A DNA stretch of 64,000 bases from positions 480-64,479 of the forward strand of contig JALOKP010000013.1 in assembly GCA_025456425.1 (NCBI GenBank). The letters are read 5' to 3'. The notes under the pieces were generated by a model. It searched no databases and was not told where the DNA came from. It saw nothing but the letters and a program-made list of their open reading frames with translations. Below are positions 49,658 to 58,638 of the stretch, piece by piece. Positions within the stretch are counted from its first letter, which is position 1; every line of letters starts with the position of its first letter. Origin of the DNA: Acidobacteriota bacterium. Its GTDB lineage: Bacteria; Acidobacteriota; Polarisedimenticolia; J045. Position numbers and translations under genes: made by a program.

Positions 49658-49705
49658 ATTGGTCGGGGTGCCGAGATTTGAACTCGGGACCCCCTGCTCC
49701 CGAAG
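49658..49705. repeat. attL-type direct repeat: displaced 3' fragment of tRNA-Pro
   Basis: 48/48 nt identical to 58518-58565 (attggtcggggtgccgagatttgaactcgggaccccctgctcccgaag). Confidence 0.9.
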
Positions 49706-49922
49706 AACGGCGAAACTACTTAACCTGTTGACTTTACAGGTCGCATCCCGCTCCATCCCGCTCGAGTGCGCTCGGTCCTGCAAAGAGCATTGCAAAGAGC
49801 GCGGCGCGGGGGAGGTATTCTGATCGTGCTTTCCGGGGGCGCACCTCGAGCTCGAGGGGCGGGTTTCCCGACCCGCCAGCGCCCCCGGGTTTCTCTCCTC
49901 GGGACCGCCACGGGAGGCGGAC

Positions 49923-50621
49923 ATGAAGCACACGACCATCGAGGTGCGCCCGCTGAGTATCGTGCTGCGCAGGCGGTGTCTCGCTGACCTGCGGAAGCAG
50001 CTCGAGGTGCACGTCCGCGCGTTCGTCTACCGGCCGACGCCGCCGACGGGGCTCGCCGGGACGCTGCCGATAGTGCTGCCGGATGACGCGCCGGCCGACG
50101 TGCGTCGCGCCCTGGACGCGCTCGCCGACGCAGTCTCCGGCGTCATCCTGGGCGCTGACCGGAAGGTCAAGCTCCACCACCGATACGCGGTGGCGGTGCG
50201 GCGCGAGGCCCACGAACTTGCCGGCACGGCGTTTGCGATCGAGTCCGATGCCCGCGAAGTCGAGCCGATGGGGGAGTTCCTTCGACAGAACCGAGAGGCC
50301 GCGCGTCGGCTCGGGCGGCTCCGTACCAGCACGACCGGCCGGCGGTCTACCCTGCCGACCGATGACACGTTGCGCGCGCTGGTCGCGGCGCTCGAGGCGT
50401 GGGTCCCCACGGCGCCCAGCGGGGCGCAGGCGGCGGTCGCGGCGCTCGAGCGGGGCATCCTCGCGGACTACCCGCGCACGCGGGCAGAGCACCGCGTGAC
50501 GCTCACGGGGAAGCTCGGAACGGCGCTCGCGTCGCGCGCGACGCCAGCCGGGAAGGCGCGCAGGATCATCGGCGCGTGGTTCGGCGTTGATCTCCGGAGA
50601 GTCCCGAACCCGGCGAAATAG
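49923..50621 (+). CDS. Hypothetical protein (first island ORF)
   Basis: GGGAGG SD 5 nt before the ATG. Protein-like composition, no recognised motif. An antisense ORF (49734..50492) is judged spurious. Confidence 0.5.
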   Translation: MKHTTIEVRPLSIVLRRRCLADLRKQLEVHVRAFVYRPTPPTGLAGTLPIVLPDDAPADVRRALDALADAVSGVILGADRKVKLHHRYAVAVRREAHELAGTAFAIESDAREVEPMGEFLRQNREAARRLGRLRTSTTGRRSTLPTDDTLRALVAALEAWVPTAPSGAQAAVAALERGILADYPRTRAEHRVTLTGKLGTALASRATPAGKARRIIGAWFGVDLRRVPNPAK

Positions 50622-50702
50622 ACCCCCGGCGCGGCGTTCGGTTTCGCCTACATTCGCGTCGCATCGTGCTCACGACCGGACGAAGCCGGTCTGGAGAACA
50701 CG

Positions 50703-50906
50703 ATGCAGAAGCACGACGCGGGTCCGCCTCATGACGCGCTGATCTACTCCGAGCCGCACGCGGCCCGGATGCTCGGGCTGGCGCCGGAGACCCTTCGGAA
50801 GCTGCGGTCCCGGGGGCTGATCGCGGCCGTCCGGATCGGACGACGTGTGCTCTACGAGCGGCGCGCGCTCGAGCAGTTCGTCGCCGAGATGCGGCGGGCA
50901 TCGTGA
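50703..50906 (+). CDS. Excisionase/AlpA-like helix-turn-helix DNA-binding protein
   Basis: YSEPHAARMLGLAPETLRKLRSRGLIAAVRIGRRVLYERRALEQFV is the HTH_17/excisionase-family pattern. Confidence 0.7.
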   Translation: MQKHDAGPPHDALIYSEPHAARMLGLAPETLRKLRSRGLIAAVRIGRRVLYERRALEQFVAEMRRAS

Positions 50907-51091
50907 TCCGCCCCGAGCGGTTCCGGCTCCTCGCGGCGGTCAACCGAACCATGGCCGATGCCGCGCTCGAGGTCGCGTGGTGCCACGAGCGGGACGGCGC
51001 CGCTCCCCCGGCCGCCGTCGAGACCGTCGCGAAGGCCGGCGCGGAACTGTTCAACATCCTGGCCGAGCTGCGGGAGGCCGGGGATCTGTGA
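50903..51091 (+). CDS. Small hypothetical protein
   Basis: ATGA overlap with the preceding gene and GTGA overlap with the following HNH gene suggest it is translated. No motif. Confidence 0.35.
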   Translation: MIRPERFRLLAAVNRTMADAALEVAWCHERDGAAPPAAVETVAKAGAELFNILAELREAGDL

Positions 51092-51639
51092 GCCCGACCT
51101 GGCGCCAAGTGCTCTACCGGGCCTACGCGCTCGGACACTCGGCGAAGGTGGGCGACCACGCGCCGGAGCTGTTCGCGCGGGAACGCTGGCAAGTCTGTAT
51201 CGCCCGCCCCTCGCGAGACCTGACGCTCCGGCTCGCCCGACGGATGGAGTGTATCGCCTGCGGTGAGCCGATCGCTCCGAACGGGACCGGCGATCACATC
51301 GTCGCCCGATCGCTCTGGGCCGCCCCGGAGGGGGCCGAGAATTACCTCCCGCTCTGCCAGCCGCACAACTCGAGCAAGGGGAGAAAGAACCTCCTCGCCT
51401 GGTGGCACGGCAAAGGCCTGCCACCCGCGGGGCTCGTGCCTGACCCGCTGCTGCAATTCGCGCGAGTCACCTATGCCTACGTCGCGCGGAACACTCTCGC
51501 CGACATGGACGCCCCGGCCGACGTGGTCGAGGCGCTCGAGGCGCTCGAGCTCGCGCTGCTGCCTAGCGTCGAGCACGTCACCGTGCTGCGGCAGGCGGCT
51601 ATCGACCAGGCGGCCGCCGCCCGCAAGGGGGGGGCATGA
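51088..51639 (+). CDS. HNH endonuclease domain protein
   Basis: CIACGEPIAPNGTGDHIVARSLW...ENYLPLCQPHNSSKGRKN (C-x2-C ... DH ... N ... C-x2-HN). The GTG start is inferred from the overlap. Confidence 0.7.
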   Translation: MSPTWRQVLYRAYALGHSAKVGDHAPELFARERWQVCIARPSRDLTLRLARRMECIACGEPIAPNGTGDHIVARSLWAAPEGAENYLPLCQPHNSSKGRKNLLAWWHGKGLPPAGLVPDPLLQFARVTYAYVARNTLADMDAPADVVEALEALELALLPSVEHVTVLRQAAIDQAAAARKGGA

Positions 51640-52457
51640 CACCGCGCGAGATGCGGCTCCTCTGGGTCGGCCTCGGGTATGACCGCGGCTGGTCGTTCAC
51701 CCCGCTGGACGGGAAGAAACCGCGGCTGTTCGGCTGGACGAAAGCGCCGCGCGAGACGCGCGAGCAGGCGCTCGCCTGGGCCGCCGCCGGCAACGTGGGC
51801 GTGCGGTGCGGCATCGTCTCTTACGCGCTGCTCGTGGTCGACGTCGACGTCCCGAAGGGCGCGACCTGGGAATGCCCCGTCCAAACGATCACGGTTCGCA
51901 CGGGCGGCGGCGGCCGGCACCACTACTTCGCGATCCCCGGCGGCGTGCACGTCCCGAACAGCTCGGGGAAGATCGGCCCGCACGTCGACGTCCGCGCCGA
52001 CGGCGGACAAGTCGTCTACCCGGGAAGCGTCCACCCGGCGACGGGCAAGGTTTACGACTGGCTCCCCGGCTGCGCTCCCGGTGAGGCGCCGCTCCGGGCC
52101 CTGCCGCACGACATCTTCCGGCTGCTGACCGATCCCGTGCCCGAGACGCGGGCGGTGCCGCCGGCGGGGCGCGTGGCAGCCTCCTCACGCTATGCGGCCG
52201 TGGCGCTCGAGCGCGAGCGGGACCGCGTTGCCGGCGCCCCCCGCGGCAGTCGCGGGACCACCCTCTACAGCGCTGCGGCCCGCATGGGCGAGCTGGTCGG
52301 CGCCAGCCTGATCGACGCGGCGACGGTCCGCTCCGCCCTGCTCTGGGCCGCCGAAGTCAACGGGCTGGCCGAGAGCGACGGGGAGGCGTCCGTCCTGCGC
52401 GAGCTCGAGCGCGGCCTATCTCTCGGGATCGCGCACCCCCGGGCGGTGACCGCATGA
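51636..52457 (+). CDS. Bifunctional DNA primase/polymerase (Prim-Pol, AEP superfamily) with PriCT-like C-terminal domain
   Basis: LLVVDVDVP (DxD), TGGGGRHHYF, VDVRADGGQVVYPGSVH. C-terminus YAAVALERERDRVAGAPRGSRGTTLYSAAARMGELV. Confidence 0.85.
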   Translation: MTPREMRLLWVGLGYDRGWSFTPLDGKKPRLFGWTKAPRETREQALAWAAAGNVGVRCGIVSYALLVVDVDVPKGATWECPVQTITVRTGGGGRHHYFAIPGGVHVPNSSGKIGPHVDVRADGGQVVYPGSVHPATGKVYDWLPGCAPGEAPLRALPHDIFRLLTDPVPETRAVPPAGRVAASSRYAAVALERERDRVAGAPRGSRGTTLYSAAARMGELVGASLIDAATVRSALLWAAEVNGLAESDGEASVLRELERGLSLGIAHPRAVTA

Positions 52458-53704
52458 CAACCGTCGATGACGTGCTCGCCGTCTACCGCCGGCACCTCTA
52501 CCTCGACGACCCCGGAGCAGTCTGGGTCACGCTCGCAACCTACGTCGCGAACCGCCGCCCCGGGACCCCGCTCTGGCTCCTGGTCGTGGCGCCCCCGTCG
52601 TCGGGCAAGACGGAGTACCTCCTGCCCCTGGTCGGCGCCCCGGACGTGACGTTCGTCTCCACGATCTCCTCCGAGGGCGCCCTGCTCTCCGCGACCGCTC
52701 GCAAGGAGCGCGGCAAGAACGCGACCGGCGGGCTCCTCCGGCAGATCGGGACGTTTGGCGTGCTCGTCCTGAAAGACTTCGGGTCGATCCTCTCCATGAA
52801 CCGCGACGCCCGCGCCGCCGTCATGGCCGCGCTGCGCGAGGTGTTCGACGGCGAGTGGACGCGCACAGTCGGAAGCGACGGCGGGCAGTCTCTCGCCTGG
52901 GCCGGCAAGGTCGGCGCGATCGGCGCCTGCACCCCCGTGATCGACCGCGCCCATGCAGTCATGACCGCCCTCGGGGACCGCTTCCTGCTCTACCGCCCGG
53001 ACGCGACCGCGACCGACCCCATGTGCAGCCGGGCCCTGAACCGCGACGGGCTCGAGCGGTCCATGCGGGCCGACCTCTCCGCCGCCGTGACCGATCTCCT
53101 CGCGCCGCTCGACCTGTCCGCGAACCCCGCCCACCTCTCCCCCGCGGACGTGGTCCGCCTGACCGCCTGGGCGAAGCTGGTCGCCCGCGGCCGGGCCGCC
53201 GTCGAGCGCGACAGCTACACGCGAGAGATCGAGCTCGTCCTGGGCGCCGAGGGCCCCGCCCGGGTGGCGATCCAGCTCCGCCAGCTCCTCGACGGGCTCC
53301 GCACCCTCGGGGCGGACGAGACGAGCGCCTGGGGCCTGGTCGGCAAGGTCGCGCTGGATACCATCCCGATCCGCCGGCGGCGGCTGCTCGAGCACCTCCG
53401 CTCCGCGGCCGACCCGCTGGACACAACCGACCTCGCCGTGCTGATCGACCACCCGGCGAACACGACCCGCCGCGACCTCGAGGACCTCACCGCTTACAAG
53501 CTGGTACAGCGCATCCCGAACGGGCCGGGCAGAGCGGACCTCTGGCGTATTACCTCGTGGGCGCTCGAGGTCTGGGCCACCGCCGAGCGGGCAACCTTCT
53601 CCGAAATGTCGGAAGACGTACACACCCCCTTTAATGAATTCCGAAAATCACAGACAGACATTTCGGAGAAGGTTCCCCCAGCCGTCGCGAGGCCGGGCGC
53701 ATGA
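52454..53704 (+). CDS. P-loop NTPase, putative replicative helicase partner of Prim-Pol (DUF3987-like), with C-terminal winged-helix-like region
   Basis: Walker A VVAPPSSGKTE and Walker-B-like GVLVLKDFG. ATGA overlap with the Prim-Pol gene. Confidence 0.65.
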   Translation: MTTVDDVLAVYRRHLYLDDPGAVWVTLATYVANRRPGTPLWLLVVAPPSSGKTEYLLPLVGAPDVTFVSTISSEGALLSATARKERGKNATGGLLRQIGTFGVLVLKDFGSILSMNRDARAAVMAALREVFDGEWTRTVGSDGGQSLAWAGKVGAIGACTPVIDRAHAVMTALGDRFLLYRPDATATDPMCSRALNRDGLERSMRADLSAAVTDLLAPLDLSANPAHLSPADVVRLTAWAKLVARGRAAVERDSYTREIELVLGAEGPARVAIQLRQLLDGLRTLGADETSAWGLVGKVALDTIPIRRRRLLEHLRSAADPLDTTDLAVLIDHPANTTRRDLEDLTAYKLVQRIPNGPGRADLWRITSWALEVWATAERATFSEMSEDVHTPFNEFRKSQTDISEKVPPAVARPGA

Positions 53705-53825
53705 CCCTTTCAATCTTCGCGACCCCCGACCCATTTAACGCCCGGGTGCGAATTTGGGTGGGCGCGGGCTTCTCGCTCGGTCGCTGCGAAAAAACGGCGC
53801 CGGCGGCCGGCGGATCGGAGGCCCT

Positions 53826-54239
53826 GTGAGTCACGTCCAGCGTCCATGCTCGCAGCCCGGCTGCCCGGCCCTGGTCAGCCCGGGCACGGGCTCACGCTGC
53901 CCGGCCCATCGTCGGCGGGACACCCGATACCGGGACCGCGGCACCCGGCAGCAGCAGGGATACGGGGGCGCGTGGTTGGCGATCCGGGCCCGGGTGCTGC
54001 GCGAGGAGCCGATCTGTCCGTGCGGCCGGCCGGCGACCCAGGTCGACCACGTCCAACCTCTGACGCGAGGCGGGACCCACGAGCGCGGCAACCTGCAAGC
54101 GCTCTGCGCGTCGTGCCACAACGTGAAGACGAAGCGTCAAGCCGCGGCTGTTTTTTCGGGCGGAAGCCGTGAGAAGCCGCGCCCCAACCACACGCACGCG
54201 AATCCAAGAATCCGAACGGGGGCAAATCATGGGCGCTAG
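53826..54239 (+). CDS. HNH endonuclease (phage packaging-associated type)
   Basis: CSQPGCPALV...RCPAH...CPCGRPATQVDHVQPLTRGGTHERGNLQALCASCHNVKT. GGAGG SD 5 nt before the GTG. Lies directly upstream of terS. Confidence 0.8.
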   Translation: MSHVQRPCSQPGCPALVSPGTGSRCPAHRRRDTRYRDRGTRQQQGYGGAWLAIRARVLREEPICPCGRPATQVDHVQPLTRGGTHERGNLQALCASCHNVKTKRQAAAVFSGGSREKPRPNHTHANPRIRTGANHGR

Positions 54240-54675
54240 GGGTCCGATCAGGGGCACGCCGGCGGCGCGGTACTGCGGCCCGTCCGGTCTGACGGCGCAG
54301 GGCGGGACGCGTGCGAAGGCGATCGAGGCCGACCCGTTGCCGACCGAGCCGCCGAGCTGGTTGCCGGCGCGGGCGAAGGCCCTGTGGCGGGCCACGCTGC
54401 CGCAGATCACGGCCCGGGCGACGCGGGCGGACCGGGAGGTCTTCGCGCAATGGTGCCTGGCCTGCGCGGCCGTGCGCGACCTGGCGCCGATCGTGGAGAA
54501 GGACCCGGCCCGGGGAGACGAGCTGCGGGCCCAGCTCCGGGCGGCGGCGATGTTGGCTCGGGAGCTGGGGCTGACGCCGGCGAGCCGGTCGCGCATCCCC
54601 GAGGTCGAGGTGGTGGAGAAGCAGCAGGACGAGAAGGCCCGGCGCGAGGCGACGATCGCCGCGCTGATTCGGTGA
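54229..54675 (+). CDS. Phage terminase small subunit, P27 family
   Basis: PSWLPARAKALWRATLPQI...REVFAQWCLACAAVRDL...AMLARELGLTPASRSRI matches the remembered P27-family TerS pattern. Start at MGARGP overlaps the HNH end. Confidence 0.72.
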   Translation: MGARGPIRGTPAARYCGPSGLTAQGGTRAKAIEADPLPTEPPSWLPARAKALWRATLPQITARATRADREVFAQWCLACAAVRDLAPIVEKDPARGDELRAQLRAAAMLARELGLTPASRSRIPEVEVVEKQQDEKARREATIAALIR

Positions 54676-54822
54676 TGACAGCGGGTTGATCACGGCCAAG
54701 GTCCTTTTCGGCGCGTGAAGTTCTCGTCAACCGCGATCTACTTGACTCTCTTCGCAATTTCGCCCAATCTCCCCGCGCGAGCACGGAGCGACACGAGGGG
54801 GAGCTCTTTCGCGGAGGCGGCG

Positions 54823-55377
54823 ATGAAGAGAGTGGAATCGCATGCCCTAGTTGCCGCGTTAGCTCTGGGCGGATTTCTCATGGTTGCCGGCTGCAACCGT
54901 CCGGGGATAGACGGCAATGAACCTCTCGCCCCGAGAAGGACTGGGAGCGCGAAGGAATCCATCGAGAAGTGTAGTTCGGCGCTCCGGGCGAATCTGGGGA
55001 GACCATTCGTGGAATTCGGCCTGCGCGATCGCGCGGGAAATATTCACAGTACCCGGGGCTTCAACGACAAGACCACCGCCTTTTTTGTGGCTGGTGCCAA
55101 TTGCCCCGGAACCAGAATCTGGGTTCCGGAACTTGCTGAGAACGGCTGGAGAATTGGCGGGCTGCAGTACGACCGCCTTGTATTCCTGGCGGTGAGCGAT
55201 CGCGCTCTTCCGGTGCCTACCGGACTACCGCAGTACAAGGTCGAATGGCCAATGCCGGGCTACCTCTCCTCCTGCACGATGTACCCGGCGGTATACGTCG
55301 TGTCGGAAGACGGAGTGTTCACGGGATTCAAACTGGGCCGAGTGGGCGCCCCCATAGTGGCAGACGAAAGCAAGTGA
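54823..55377 (+). CDS. Lipoprotein with thioredoxin-like (TlpA/redoxin) fold, single-Cys active-site remnant
   Basis: Lipobox LMVAGC. FGLRDRAGNIHSTRGFNDKTTAFFVAGANCPGTRIWVPEL parallels the redoxin F-x-L-x-D-x-G...WCxxC...P-x-L layout, but with CPGT. Lies in the lower-GC segment. Confidence 0.55.
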   Translation: MKRVESHALVAALALGGFLMVAGCNRPGIDGNEPLAPRRTGSAKESIEKCSSALRANLGRPFVEFGLRDRAGNIHSTRGFNDKTTAFFVAGANCPGTRIWVPELAENGWRIGGLQYDRLVFLAVSDRALPVPTGLPQYKVEWPMPGYLSSCTMYPAVYVVSEDGVFTGFKLGRVGAPIVADESK

Positions 55378-55393
55378 GAATGGGAGGTGGTGT

Positions 55394-56092
55394 ATGAGGT
55401 ACAAGCGTATGTTCCTATGCGGGCTGCTCGTCCTTCTCTCTCTCTCAGGAGTATTCGTAGCCGCAGCCTCTCAGTGCGATTGGGATCCGGTCACCGAAGT
55501 TTGCAATGGCGCGTGTGAACCGGGCGAGCCTGACTGTGACCGCTGGTACGGCTGTGGCTGCTCGATCTGCGAGCCGTGGCAAGAGGGCTACTCGCTCGAG
55601 TTGGTCATGACTCGGGACGGCGGCTCGGGTCCTCCGCACAGCGTCGGGTCGGCATACTCCGGTTCCTTGGCGCAGTCGACCGGCGGAACTATTCAAAACC
55701 GCCGCGAATGGGGAACCGCCATCGATGCAGTTCCGGCGGTCTCGGATCTCCAGCTAACGGCGGAAGTTAGGCAGGGGGGGAACTCCGTTACGCGCAGACT
55801 TGTTATCACCTCACTCTACGCGAGGATCCCCACCTTCGTTCACTCTCGGACCAGTCCAGATAGCACCGGGGATAACGTGTTCGCGCTTTTTGGCGGCCTG
55901 CCAAGCGTGCTGACCCTGAACACTCAAACCGGAGCGGTCACGGGTACGCTCTACACCACCATGACGAATGCGTTCTACGGCGCTAATGACCGCATCGGGA
56001 TCGAGATGGACGTGACCGGGACGTTTGACTTCAACGCCATGCGACTCACCTTGGATCTCGGCGGCACCGGCATGCTGAAGACCGCAACCTAG
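55394..56092 (+). CDS. Secreted protein with N-terminal 7-Cys cluster and beta-rich C-terminal domain
   Basis: Signal peptide FLCGLLVLLSLSGVFVAAA. CDWDPVTEVCNGACEPGEPDCDRWYGCGCSIC. No family recognised. Confidence 0.55.
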   Translation: MRYKRMFLCGLLVLLSLSGVFVAAASQCDWDPVTEVCNGACEPGEPDCDRWYGCGCSICEPWQEGYSLELVMTRDGGSGPPHSVGSAYSGSLAQSTGGTIQNRREWGTAIDAVPAVSDLQLTAEVRQGGNSVTRRLVITSLYARIPTFVHSRTSPDSTGDNVFALFGGLPSVLTLNTQTGAVTGTLYTTMTNAFYGANDRIGIEMDVTGTFDFNAMRLTLDLGGTGMLKTAT

Positions 56093-56829
56093 CCGGGCTG
56101 CCTCGGCGCCGGCGGACTTGAACCGCCGGCGCCGTAGCGGCTTGAGAATGCAATGGCCGCCGCGCCGCCCGGCACGAATACCGTCAGCGTCAGGACCTGA
56201 GAACTCGACAGCGGTCCGAGCCAGAGCGGGGTGTCGGCTCTGAGGAAGTCCGTTGAGAACCGGATGACACCATACCCGAACAGTAGCGTGCCGATCGATC
56301 GCCAAGTAGGAGCGGGGCGGAGTAGATAGACTCCCAGCAGAGCAATCAGGAAGGCCTCATAGAGCGGAACAGGGTGCAGGGGCAGAGGGCCCAAGGATCT
56401 GCCCGCGGTGGTACCGAGGTTGTACCTGACTCCCCATGGCAGCCTTGTGGGCATGCCGAAGCAACAGCCCGCCATGAAGCACTGGATCCGACCGAGCACG
56501 GCCGATATGGCAACGGCGGGCGCCAAGCAGTCGAGGACTGGACCCACCGGCACGCGAAGAAGTAGAGCCCCAATCGCCGCGCCAGCGCAACCACCGATGA
56601 GTCCTCCCAGAAGAGACCGCGGAGGAGCGAGAGGAGCAGATACGGTCGCCTGCATTCCGGCGAGCCACGTCATCTGACCGAAAAAAACAAACCAGATGAA
56701 TCGGCTACCGACAAGCCCGCCTAGTACGGCCGGGCAGACCAATATCTTCGATCTAAGATCGAGACACCGCCAACTCACGCCCAGGAATACCGATACTCCG
56801 AGAGCGAGGGGCAGGAGTTCGTTTGGCAT
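56089..56829 (-). CDS. lgt: Prolipoprotein diacylglyceryl transferase (Lgt)-family protein, island-borne paralog
   Basis: LGRIQCFMAGCCFGMPTRLPWGV, HPVPLYEAFL and LLFGYGVIRFSTDFLRAD match Lgt signature blocks. Start at MPNELLP is inferred. Confidence 0.7.
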   Translation of the reverse strand: MPNELLPLALGVSVFLGVSWRCLDLRSKILVCPAVLGGLVGSRFIWFVFFGQMTWLAGMQATVSAPLAPPRSLLGGLIGGCAGAAIGALLLRVPVGPVLDCLAPAVAISAVLGRIQCFMAGCCFGMPTRLPWGVRYNLGTTAGRSLGPLPLHPVPLYEAFLIALLGVYLLRPAPTWRSIGTLLFGYGVIRFSTDFLRADTPLWLGPLSSSQVLTLTVFVPGGAAAIAFSSRYGAGGSSPPAPRQPG

Positions 56830-57215
56830 GCACGATCTCCGGCGCCAAACCGACGCGCAAGCGCTATATCCCGCTTTCCAGCAGCTGCTCAGGGTAGCAC
56901 AGGCGGAGGGGACTGAAGGCGACACCGCGGCCGGGTTGGTTCCGGCGCCGGTCGCGACGGCCGGCCAGGGAGCCAGAGAGGTTCAACCGCACGTCCGGGA
57001 GGGACGTTGACTTCGACGGCCGGCAAGGTGCAGTCTTGTTGCGTAGGCGGGACCGCCGAGTGCGTCAACACCCGACGGCCCCTAACCCGCGACGTGGAGA
57101 TAGCCACGATGCGAGCTGTCCGAAGCGTACCGCATCCTGCGATCGTTCGGGGCGTTCTGCCGCCGGCAAGTGCCGGTCAGCCGTCGTGCGTCTCCACCGC
57201 GAGGAGGAGGAGACG

Positions 57216-57407
57216 ATGACCACGCGCACGCTCGACCTGATCCCCCACGCACGTCTGGCGGACCTGCCGCCCGAGACACTCGACGCGATCCTGGCCGAGG
57301 TCGACGCGATGCTCGAGCACGCCGACGATACCGACCCGGCCCAGTACGAGGCGGCCGCGGACCGGTTCTTCGCCGCGATCCGGGCGGCGGCCGAGGGGGA
57401 GGAGTAG
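57216..57407 (+). CDS. Small acidic hypothetical protein upstream of int
   Basis: Strong SD GAGGAGGAGGAG 4 nt before the ATG. Its TAG stop abuts the integrase ATG (TAGATG). Confidence 0.4.
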   Translation: MTTRTLDLIPHARLADLPPETLDAILAEVDAMLEHADDTDPAQYEAAADRFFAAIRAAAEGEE

Positions 57408-58541
57408 ATGGCCGTTCACAAGTACGAACGGAGCGACGGGAGTACGGTCTACTTCGCCAGCTACCGCGGGCCGGACGGGAAGCGGATCACGGACGAGCCG
57501 AAGGGCCGGCGCACCGTGAAGCCGGACGCGTCCGCGAAGGAGCACGCCCGCGCCCGGCTGGCGGTCAGCAACTACGCGAGCACGCGCCGGACCGAAGTCG
57601 AAAACGGGACGTGGCAGCCGCTCGAGAGCGACCGGCCGAAGGAAAAGGGGCTCACGGTCCGGGCGCTCGCGAAGCGGTTCACGGCGCAATACCGGAGCCG
57701 GAACGGGAGCGTCACCTTCTACGAGCAGCGCCTCGCGGCGATCGACGACGAGCTCGGCGCCCTGCTCGCCTCGCGCGTGACGGTCGACGACGTGGAGCGG
57801 TTCAAGAATCGGCGGTCCGACAAGGCCGGGCCCGCGACGGTCAAGAAAGACCTCGTGGCGCTCTCCAAGGTCTTTCGGTGGGCGCAGCACCGCGGGCTCG
57901 TGAAGGACAACCCGGCCGAGGCCCGGCGCGTCCCCCGCCCTGCTGAGCCGCGGCGCAAGGTGGTGTTCCTCGACGATGACCAGGAGGCGGCGCTGCTCGC
58001 GGCCGCGGACCTGTGGCTCTCGCGCATCGTCCGGTGGATGCTCGGGACGGGCATGGACCGGGGTGAGGTCGTCGCGCTCCGGTGGGAGAACGTCGACCTC
58101 ACCCGCGGGACGGTCTACGCGCCGCGGGCGAAAACCGGGGTGGCCCGGAGCATCGCCCTGACCGACACCCTCCGGGCGCTGCTCGAGGAGTGCCGGAAGT
58201 CGGACCCCTCGCACGGGGGCGAGGTCGTCTCGCTCGAGGCCCGGCGGGAGGGGCTGGTCTTCCTGAACGCGCACGGCGGCCCGGTGACGGTGGCCGGGCT
58301 GAAGACTGCTTTCGTGAAGCTGTACCGGCGGGCGGGGGTGACGACCGGCTCGCCGGCGAAGGTGCTCCGGCACACGTTCGCGACGCGGGCCCTCGAGGCG
58401 GGCGTGCACCCCTCGGTGCTGGCCGATCTGCTCGGGCACACGAGCATTGCAAAAAGCCGAGACGGCGCACGCGCCCCGCAAGGGAGCCTGACGCATCATG
58501 CTGACTTTTCGGGGGTTATTGGTCGGGGTGCCGAGATTTGA
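57408..58541 (+). CDS. int: Tyrosine-recombinase-family integrase; the C-terminal catalytic Tyr motif could not be found (possibly defective)
   Basis: N-terminal SAM-like/arm region, GMDRGEVVALRWENVDL, AKTGVARSIAL, LRHTFATRALEAG, LLGHTSIA. The ORF then reads KSRDGARAPQG... into the att repeat without Y-x-H. Confidence 0.75.
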   Translation: MAVHKYERSDGSTVYFASYRGPDGKRITDEPKGRRTVKPDASAKEHARARLAVSNYASTRRTEVENGTWQPLESDRPKEKGLTVRALAKRFTAQYRSRNGSVTFYEQRLAAIDDELGALLASRVTVDDVERFKNRRSDKAGPATVKKDLVALSKVFRWAQHRGLVKDNPAEARRVPRPAEPRRKVVFLDDDQEAALLAAADLWLSRIVRWMLGTGMDRGEVVALRWENVDLTRGTVYAPRAKTGVARSIALTDTLRALLEECRKSDPSHGGEVVSLEARREGLVFLNAHGGPVTVAGLKTAFVKLYRRAGVTTGSPAKVLRHTFATRALEAGVHPSVLADLLGHTSIAKSRDGARAPQGSLTHHADFSGVIGRGAEI

Positions 58542-58565
58542 ACTCGGGACCCCCTGCTCCCGAAG
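58518..58565. repeat. attR-type direct repeat (3' 46 nt of the intact tRNA-Pro plus 2 nt)
   Basis: Identical to 49658-49705. It ends one base past the anticodon loop, on its 5' side. Confidence 0.9.
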
Positions 58566-58596
58566 CAGGTGCGCTACCAGGCTGCGCTACACCCCG
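58520..58596 (-). tRNA. tRNA-Pro (anticodon CGG)
   Basis: Hand-folded 77-nt cloverleaf: CGGGGTG acceptor, GCGC/GCGC D stem, CCTGC-TTCGGGA-GCAGG anticodon arm, CCGAG-TTCAAAT-CTCGG T arm, encoded CCA. Confidence 0.9.
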
Positions 58597-58638
58597 ACCG
58601 GTTCAGAGCCGGAGGAAACCGGTTCAGAGCCGGAGGAA
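58597..58638. repeat. Perfect 21-bp tandem duplication immediately upstream of tRNA-Pro
   Basis: accggttcagagccggaggaa occurs twice (58597-58617 and 58618-58638). Each unit contains CCGG-N7-CCGG. Confidence 0.85.

Follow-up and report, generated by a model that had tools for sequence, protein, structure and literature searches.

Why would a packaging-type HNH endonuclease gene and a phage small terminase gene lie side by side in a bacterial chromosome with no large terminase gene behind them? The pair in question is found in contig JALOKP010000013.1 of an Acidobacteriota bacterium (assembly GCA_025456425.1), of which a stretch of 64,000 nucleotides, hereafter the window, was analyzed; the HNH gene occupies positions 53826-54239 and the small terminase gene, terS, positions 54229-54675, both on the plus strand. 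The answer that we favor, and consider probable, is that the pair constitutes the packaging-specificity module of an 8.9-kb satellite that resembles the phage-inducible chromosomal islands (PICIs), resides in a tRNA-Pro gene of an uncultured soil Acidobacteriota, and redirects the large terminase (TerL) of a helper phage. The initial annotation of this DNA had proposed that such an orphan pair would serve a satellite in redirecting the packaging machinery of a helper, a proposal that is supported by the layout of the island, an empty insertion site, the relatives of the pair, and a closely related element in another lineage (L012); from these we infer the helper, its induction, and the packaging roles of the island. 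The HNH protein and TerS are homologous to the products of the first two genes of a phage module of the order HNH-TerS-TerL-portal-capsid.

The 148-residue product of terS has the features of a P27/HK97-type small terminase. Its translation matches PF05119 (Terminase_4) at 30.6 bits, above the gathering cutoff of 24.7, and phrog_83, annotated as terminase small subunit, with an E value of 3.7e-13. TIGR01558 (sm_term_P27) is matched with an E value of 2.8e-9, yet under the equivalog cutoff of that model (37 versus 45.6). A search of PDB sequences with the TerS profile gave nothing significant, and a fold search was needed. An AlphaFold (AF2) model, built on 14 clade members and with a predicted local distance difference test score (pLDDT) of 80.8, has as its top PDB fold matches the HK97 small terminase structures 8pop and 6z6e (probabilities of 0.99 and 0.84; template modeling scores to the target of 0.57-0.63), and its top matches among predicted viral structures (BFVD) are TerS proteins of the COG3747/P27 type. 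In phages, homologues of this protein are encoded directly before TerL.

The upstream gene encodes a 137-residue protein that matches PF01844 (E value 8.3e-11; 42.3 bits against a cutoff of 21.4) and phrog_144 (E value 1.4e-26) in profile searches. Its zinc-finger/HNH signature, CPC...DH...N...CASCHN (pattern CxC...DH...N...CxxCHN), is intact, and the zinc-binding cysteines are thus kept. The position of the gene beside terS fits a packaging-associated HNH protein of the HK97 gp74 type, and homologous placements are seen in the metagenomic phage L028 and in Streptomyces phage Chymera. In L028, an uncalled open reading frame (ORF) whose product is 48% identical to the window HNH protein ends at the TerS start codon, before TerS-TerL. 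In the window, the HNH ORF stops at 54239 and the ATG of terS is at 54229, an overlap of 11 nucleotides. The initial annotation, which had named an HNH gene, a P27-type TerS, and this overlap at these coordinates, is borne out on all three: by both profiles and the intact motif for HNH, and by profiles, fold, and synteny for TerS. It had also held that profile or structural evidence against a small terminase would undo its proposal; both kinds of evidence place the protein among the small terminases.

The relatives of TerS were sought in an exhaustive phmmer search that covered 1.8 billion representatives, in which the protein proved rare, with 86 matches at E values of 1e-3 or lower. Thirteen of these lie at 1e-15 or lower (9.8e-55 to 9.7e-16), the next match lies at 3.7e-8, and the 13 thus form a distinct clade; a word-indexed homologue search returned only two clusters, that of the window TerS itself (P0001) and P0002. 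Gene contexts were read for nine clade clusters and for a second copy in the same genome, with the context of L014 placed in neither of the classes that follow. Five clusters are from phages in which a TerL gene (PF03354 and PF20441) overlaps the stop of terS (L026/27, L028-30, L032, L033/34, and L035, the TerL call in the last being a weak match on a 105-residue fragment); in L028, TerS-TerL is followed by a methyltransferase, a portal, and a protease-capsid fusion. In L031 and in a second island of the same genome as the window (C128), terS is followed by a gene for an HK97-fold capsid protein, without TerL. The closest relative of all is L012, with 72% identity in TerS and 70% in HNH; it has a DUF927 primase/replicase instead of the Prim-Pol of the window, and its terS is followed by an unrelated ORF of 84 residues and by no TerL gene. 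TerS is therefore not directly upstream of TerL in the window, in L012, in L031, or in C128. The phylogenetic comparison that the initial annotation had proposed succeeds for TerS in one respect, as the pairing of the window with L012 is supported (98/98), and fails in the other, as the rest of the tree is a star with no link to a phage; being star-shaped, it carries no information on the direction of transfer between phages and satellites.

The absence of the rest of the packaging module was examined at the level of the window, the island, and the genome. A tblastn search with the TerL of a related phage gave a best E value of 1.1 in the window and 0.7 in the metagenome-assembled genome (MAG), and neither PF03354 (the TerL ATPase) nor PF04860 (portal) has a match in the MAG, which is 85% complete. 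Profile searches, with tblastn for TerL, detected no TerL, portal, capsid, or tail gene and no structural or lysis gene in the island. The flanks of the pair thus yielded no sign of the TerL remnant that the initial annotation had said would speak against a satellite, and its statement that cargo follows terS, rather than TerL or portal genes, agrees with the genes found there: those for a putative lipoprotein, a secreted protein rich in Cys, and a paralog of Lgt.

The pair lies within a segment of 8.9 kb, 49658-58565, that is bordered by a perfect direct repeat of 48 bp. The two copies, the left attachment site attL (49658-49705) and the right attachment site attR (58518-58565), are 100% identical and are spaced by 8860, and the right copy is the 3' part of a tRNA-Pro(CGG) gene on the minus strand (58520-58596; attR and tRNA together, 58518-58596). 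In a genome of the same genus, G402, the left flank, a single tRNA-Pro gene, and the right flank are contiguous, so that the site is empty there. The island is a discrete site-specific insertion with attL and attR. Beside the tRNA gene, at 58597-58638, a 21-bp unit is present as a tandem duplicate in the window and as a single copy in G402. In order from attL, the island encodes a 232-residue protein without assigned function, an HTH_17 regulator, a 62-residue protein likewise without assignment, a weakly HNH-like protein, a Prim-Pol, and a 416-residue Walker A protein; the second half continues with HNH, TerS, three cargo genes of lower GC content, a second 62-residue protein, a tyrosine integrase, and attR with the tRNA gene.

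The pair could also be what is left of a decayed prophage, one in which an HNH-TerS-TerL-portal module lost everything past TerS and gained cargo, leaving the pair as a nonfunctional leftover. That the phage relatives show exactly the order HNH-TerS-TerL is what such an origin would predict, and the cargo segment (window 54000-58000) has a GC content of 0.645-0.67 compared with ~0.72-0.75 in the island backbone and chromosome, a difference that suggests later acquisition of these genes and that is expected if cargo replaced phage genes. Decay occurs in the group: in a genome of the same genus (G401:C37; L136 9773-11927), a TerS of the clade is split over two frames and is followed by the gene for an HK97-fold capsid protein. 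A fragment of a helicase (AAA_25) lies upstream of the split gene, and the locus looks, from its sequence, like a decaying TerS-capsid island. The window copy itself is damaged in its tyrosine integrase gene (57408-58541, plus strand; PF00589, E value 1.2e-23), where alignment to the copies L002 and L004 reveals an 89-bp deletion after 58442 (58442-58443) that causes a frameshift and, with it, loss of the catalytic Tyr of the motif DRYAH. Because of this loss the window copy has probably forfeited self-excision, unless the deletion is an assembly error.

Set against decay, all ORFs of the island except the integrase are intact, and an identical TerS is present on 22 contigs, drawn from several assemblies and runs; the two long contigs shown, L002 and L003, share one chromosomal context for the island. 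Other copies have an intact integrase, with 390 residues and the sequence HTSAAIVDRYAH in both L004 and L002. L012, an independent lineage with another replicase, has the same TerL-less HNH-TerS order, and rough NG86 estimates of the ratio of nonsynonymous to synonymous substitution rates (dN/dS) between the window and L012 are below 1 for both genes (0.31 for HNH and 0.51 for TerS). The tblastn searches detected no TerL fragment in the window or the MAG, a cos-like block described below is conserved, and the genome holds three islands (8.8-11.3 kb) that are built to one modular plan and all have exact att repeats. On this balance a prophage remnant is an unlikely explanation of the pair; were it the right one, the locus would amount to an ordinary mobilome annotation.

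An alignment of the DNA upstream of terS across the relatives reveals a conserved noncoding block at 54141-54228 (plus strand), directly upstream of terS, that is kept in both the phages and the islands and is composed, in order, of a G-rich hairpin, GTTTTTTCGG, GAGAAGCCGCGCC, CACGCACGCG, and AAG-N-TCCG. Its conservation stands out because the proteins share just ~40-50% identity. The catalytic domain of HNH ends at ~54135, and the final ~33 codons of its ORF, which are not conserved, run through the block; in L012, the HNH ORF stops 98 nucleotides before terS, upstream of the block. The 33-residue tail and the 11-nucleotide overlap with terS thus arise because the HNH frame of the window happens to run on through the block. 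In an nhmmer search of the window's own genome, the block was found only in this island (4e-16) and in the C128 island (1.5e-12).

Among short contigs from three TerL-bearing phage species, the starts of four (L026, L027, L032, and L034) fall in a single aligned column, equivalent to window ~54187/8, and the start of a fifth (L033) lies 3 nucleotides past it. The left end of the linear record of Streptomyces phage Chymera (KU958700) aligns to the same column. Chymera, which we take to be a cos phage in view of SEA-PHAGES deposition practice, is alone among cultured phages in having a TerS detectably similar to this one (38.5% identity over 89 residues); its TerS is gene 1, at nucleotide 80, its TerL is gene 2, and its HNH is encoded by the last gene, which ends 69 nucleotides from the right end. 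A motif resembling AAGTT(T)CGGGATCCG is common to Chymera and the block and lies ~20 nucleotides inside the end. Phages of the HK97 type reportedly have cos exactly between HNH and terS, as is said to have been described by Kala et al. in 2014. Given this order and the coincident ends, 54141-54228 is read as the cos region of the island, for which it is a strong candidate, with a DNA end predicted at ~54187/54188; the island would thus carry the set HNH-cos-TerS. A cos-like block between the HNH domain and the start of TerS, and with it a candidate HNH-cos-TerS kit, is what is new here.

The block might instead be a terminator followed by a late promoter and 5' untranslated region, with the contig starts being transcription starts and the cos or pac site lying elsewhere, a reading that concerns the cos assignment alone and is compatible with the island being a satellite. 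The G-rich hairpin and the T-run after it, which make up the first half of the block, are terminator-like, the sister islands encode sigma-r4-like proteins, and Logan contigs can derive from RNA runs. We nevertheless regard a regulatory role as rather improbable: the deposited left end of Chymera falls in the same column, ~20 nucleotides before the shared motif; a sigma-70-like promoter was not found in the region or elsewhere in the island; two of the contigs with coincident starts (L026 and L027) come from ENA assemblies, which may rest on DNA or RNA libraries; and the order HNH, cos, terS of HK97-type phages places cos exactly here. No HNH-bearing contig ending at the putative right cos end was seen among the contigs found, which span the site.

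The initial annotation had pointed to 54676-54822 or 53705-53825 as places for a cos or pac site. The first was rejected as a candidate because nothing downstream of terS is conserved between the window and L012. The second does hold, upstream of HNH, a partial copy of the cos-like block in inverted orientation (53743-53804, minus strand; hairpin and T6), and the best candidate is the block at 54141-54228. The local alignment score of the inverted copy is 31, compared with 15.5 +/- 2.2 for 1977 random windows, the highest of which reached 23, and its genome-wide nhmmer E value is 0.07; a terminator-like hairpin is located at 53812-53798. The copy is absent from L028 and L012. The HNH gene is thereby placed between the arms of an imperfect inverted repeat of ~60 nucleotides, 53743-53804 (minus) and 54141-54200 (plus). 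The repeat could reflect a second site for TerS, past insertion of an HNH cassette, or outward-facing terminators.

Taken as a satellite with its own cos, the island could act as follows. A helper with HK97-like cos packaging would infect the cell or be induced, and the island would excise through an intact integrase, as is encoded in its other copies. The replicase of the island would generate concatemers, to which the island TerS would bind at the island's own cos block and recruit the TerL of the helper. Cleavage at cos by HNH-dependent terminases needs an accessory nuclease, a role that the island HNH would fill. The helper, of the HK97/P27-TerS type, would provide TerL, portal, capsid, and tail, and the island DNA would enter helper-made heads, probably as multimers or in altered capsids, the alteration possibly being the work of one of the island ORFs that lack an assigned family.

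The same genes could serve mainly to sabotage the packaging of cos phages, by titrating TerL or cutting DNA, and be kept for defense rather than spread. Satellites commonly disturb the packaging of their helpers (PMC10085698, PMC5052747), the island TerS, as a homologue of phage TerS proteins, could compete with them for TerL, and the window copy probably cannot excise by itself. We think this quite unlikely as the main role, as the island has retained a cos-like block of its own at the canonical place, a feature that packaging of the island requires and interference does not, and keeps a full replication module and, in other copies, the att/integrase machinery. Interference and self-packaging are, moreover, not mutually exclusive in known satellites.

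Several observations weigh against the proposal that the island is a satellite packaged through its own cos and TerS. No helper phage has been identified, the closest TerL-linked TerS having ~45% identity and coming from other metagenomes. There is no evidence of excision, circles, or encapsidation, and the integrase of the window copy is truncated. The island has no recognizable gene for redirecting capsid size, and its 8.9 kb are far under the normal head capacity of a cos phage. The TerS tree neither groups the satellites nor ties this TerS to a particular phage, and the dN/dS of TerS indicates only moderate constraint. At 85% completeness, the MAG permits no absolute statement that the genome lacks TerL. 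Finally, the coincident contig starts could be 5' ends of transcripts, if any of the runs are metatranscriptomes.

Two further loci bear on the existence of helpers and circles. In a genome of the same family (G409), a phage or prophage contig (C51:11947-13352) carries a clade-related TerS (E value 3e-14) directly upstream of TerL, and this contig exemplifies, within the host family, the type of phage that would act as helper. A Logan contig of 8979 bp from three samples, L004, consists of one att-to-att unit with an intact integrase (8949 bp) and a 30-nucleotide terminal overlap. It was rejected as proof of a circle because its start exactly at att base 1 also fits a repeat-bounded unitig, making it ambiguous. 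A megablast comparison of the island with 50,697 phage records gave no match, scans of IMG/VR with the island TerS and the TerS of phage L028 gave nothing, and neither did scans of JGI metagenomes with the TerS alignment and a pattern of the cos block.

The remaining genes of the island were called by third-position GC, the window being GC-rich (~0.72), and then checked against profile libraries. The 232-residue protein (49923-50621, plus strand) is called in all other copies of the island and has no match in Pfam, PHROGs, or NCBIfam. It is followed by an AlpA/excisionase-like HTH_17 regulator of 67 residues (50703-50906, plus strand; PF12728, E value 4.8e-11; phrog_66, excisionase/regulator, 1.8e-6). 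The initial annotation had placed a second, unrelated HNH protein at 51088-51639 (plus strand; 183 residues); it is indeed unrelated to the packaging HNH (E value 0.69), and its identity as an HNH protein is weakly supported, as it matches PHROG HNH families alone (E values 1.8e-4 to 2.8e-3), with no match in Pfam or NCBIfam. The Prim-Pol primase/polymerase (51636-52457, plus strand; 273 residues) matches PF09250 (1.2e-29) and phrog_1156 (3.7e-23). The 416-residue protein next to it (52454-53704, plus strand) has a Walker A motif, APPSSGKT, and a C-terminal region resembling a winged helix-turn-helix; its winged helix-turn-helix and replication-initiator matches are all subthreshold, and it is a putative replicase partner by virtue of its place after the Prim-Pol. 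The cargo segment (54822-56925, mixed strands) comprises genes for a putative lipoprotein (54822-55377, plus), a Cys-rich secreted protein (55394-56092, plus), and an Lgt paralog (56089-56925, minus; PF01790, 4.3e-27). The 62-residue protein just before the integrase (57219-57407, plus strand) is 39% identical (E value 2e-8) to the protein at the same position in the C128 island. An Rfam scan of the island found the tRNA alone.

The two sister islands in this genome have a similar plan and different contents. The second island, C128 (L023 1925-13214), spans 11,253 bp at a tRNA-Sec gene and has a 37-bp direct repeat. It carries an HTH_17 protein, a sigma-r4 protein, a primase-pol/AAA_25 protein, a cos-like block, and a TerS paralog that is 39% identical to that of the window, together with the HK97-fold capsid gene, a sigma-like protein, a 687-residue protein without assigned function, and an integrase; no HNH, TerL, or portal gene was found in it. 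Between its primase and TerS (L023 9500-9590) are iteron-like repeats, GCACCCGT/ACGGGTGC, flanking an AT-containing palindrome, CCCCTATATAGGGG. L014 has similar iteron-like repeats, GGTACCGCA, at the corresponding location between primase and TerS (1080-1200), there on both sides of the AT-containing palindrome CCCTATAGGG, and in both cases the arrangement looks like a satellite replication origin. The third island, C167 (L126 1117-9976), spans 8,821 bp at a tRNA-Leu(CAA) gene, has a 39-bp repeat, and encodes an integrase, a sigma-like protein, an HK97-fold major capsid protein, a 278-residue protein of no assigned function in the TerS position, a primase/helicase, and a helix-turn-helix excisionase-like protein.

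A broader and more tentative reading, which we hold possible and would not place at even odds, is that the Acidobacteriota host an undescribed group of phage satellites that split the HNH-dependent cos terminase between themselves and the helper, the island giving cos, TerS, and HNH and borrowing the TerL motor and the virion, with the sister islands using other kits, namely cos-TerS-capsid in C128 or a capsid without a recognizable TerS. If so, HNH would be a codeterminant of cos specificity, and a single cell would house several strategies for hijacking the same phage lineage. The three coresident islands offer an internal comparison of minimal hijacking kits, and the predicted cos end is a concrete, testable coordinate.

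To our knowledge, the phage satellites described so far are almost all from Proteobacteria and Firmicutes, with a few from Actinobacteria. The Acidobacteriota are a dominant but poorly cultured soil phylum, hence the interest of the island. They have no occurrence in the satellite survey of de Sousa et al. 2023 (PMC10085698), and a full-text search of the literature found no paper describing phage satellites in the Acidobacteria, only an unrelated review. PICIs are defined by an integrase, an AlpA, MerR, or Stl regulator, a primase-replicase, TerS, and the lack of structural genes, with a median size of 9.5 kb; HNH is "occasionally also found in PICI" (PMC10085698). Among the defining features that can be computed, the island has att repeats with an integrase (truncated here), an AlpA-like helix-turn-helix protein, a primase-replicase, and TerS, and it has no structural or lysis genes. 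It is like the PICIs of Fillol-Salom et al. 2018 and de Sousa et al. 2023 (PMC6092414, PMC10085698) in its size of ~9 kb, its att-flanked integration, its integrase, helix-turn-helix protein, primase-replicase, and TerS, and the placement of cargo after terS. It differs from them in a split replicase, composed of Prim-Pol and a P-loop protein, in a P27/HK97-type TerS paired with HNH and a cos-like site, in an integrase gene at the attR end that is codirectional with all other genes, and in its host phylum, Acidobacteriota.

Other small elements share parts of this plan. The phiRv1/phiRv2-like elements of Mycobacterium, classed among the putative satellites (PMC10085698), are ~9-11 kb in size and carry an integrase, a primase, and few head or packaging genes; the sister islands C128 and C167 are similarly minimal with an HK97-fold capsid, whereas the island studied here lacks a capsid gene, and the likeness is one of layout. 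The capsid-forming PICIs, or cf-PICIs (Alqurainy et al., 10.1101/2022.09.08.507074), have the same adjacent HNH and TerS of a cos packaging module; theirs also includes TerL, portal, capsid, protease, and connectors, none of which was found in the island, and because it is without TerL, portal, and capsid the island is no cf-PICI. The packaging modules of HK97 (gp74 HNH, cos, gp1 TerS, gp2 TerL) and Chymera have the same order, with HNH last, cos, and TerS first, and HK97 has the same TerS fold. In the island, this module stops after TerS, without TerL, portal, or head genes, and sits in a 9-kb element with its own replicase and integrase.

Cos-packaged satellites are the closest functional parallel. 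HNH-dependent cos packaging was reportedly described by Quiles-Puchalt et al. in 2014 for the helper phages of Staphylococcus aureus pathogenicity islands (SaPIs). SaPIbov5 carries only the cos of its helper and relies on the phage for TerS and HNH, unlike the island, which encodes its own TerS and HNH and may therefore, as this comparison suggests, have its own cos specificity. Known cos satellites copy the cos of the helper, as do SaPIbov5 and P4, or re-aim the helper TerS, as does Rpp. Similar to the SaPIs of the SaPIbov5 type and their helpers phi12 and phiSLT, the island would be a satellite with a cos that exploits an HK97-like cos terminase needing TerS, TerL, and HNH (PMC5052747). A satellite with its own cos, TerS, and HNH and no TerL would be a third solution to the same problem and a natural means of finding out which of the components determines cos specificity when a terminase depends on HNH.

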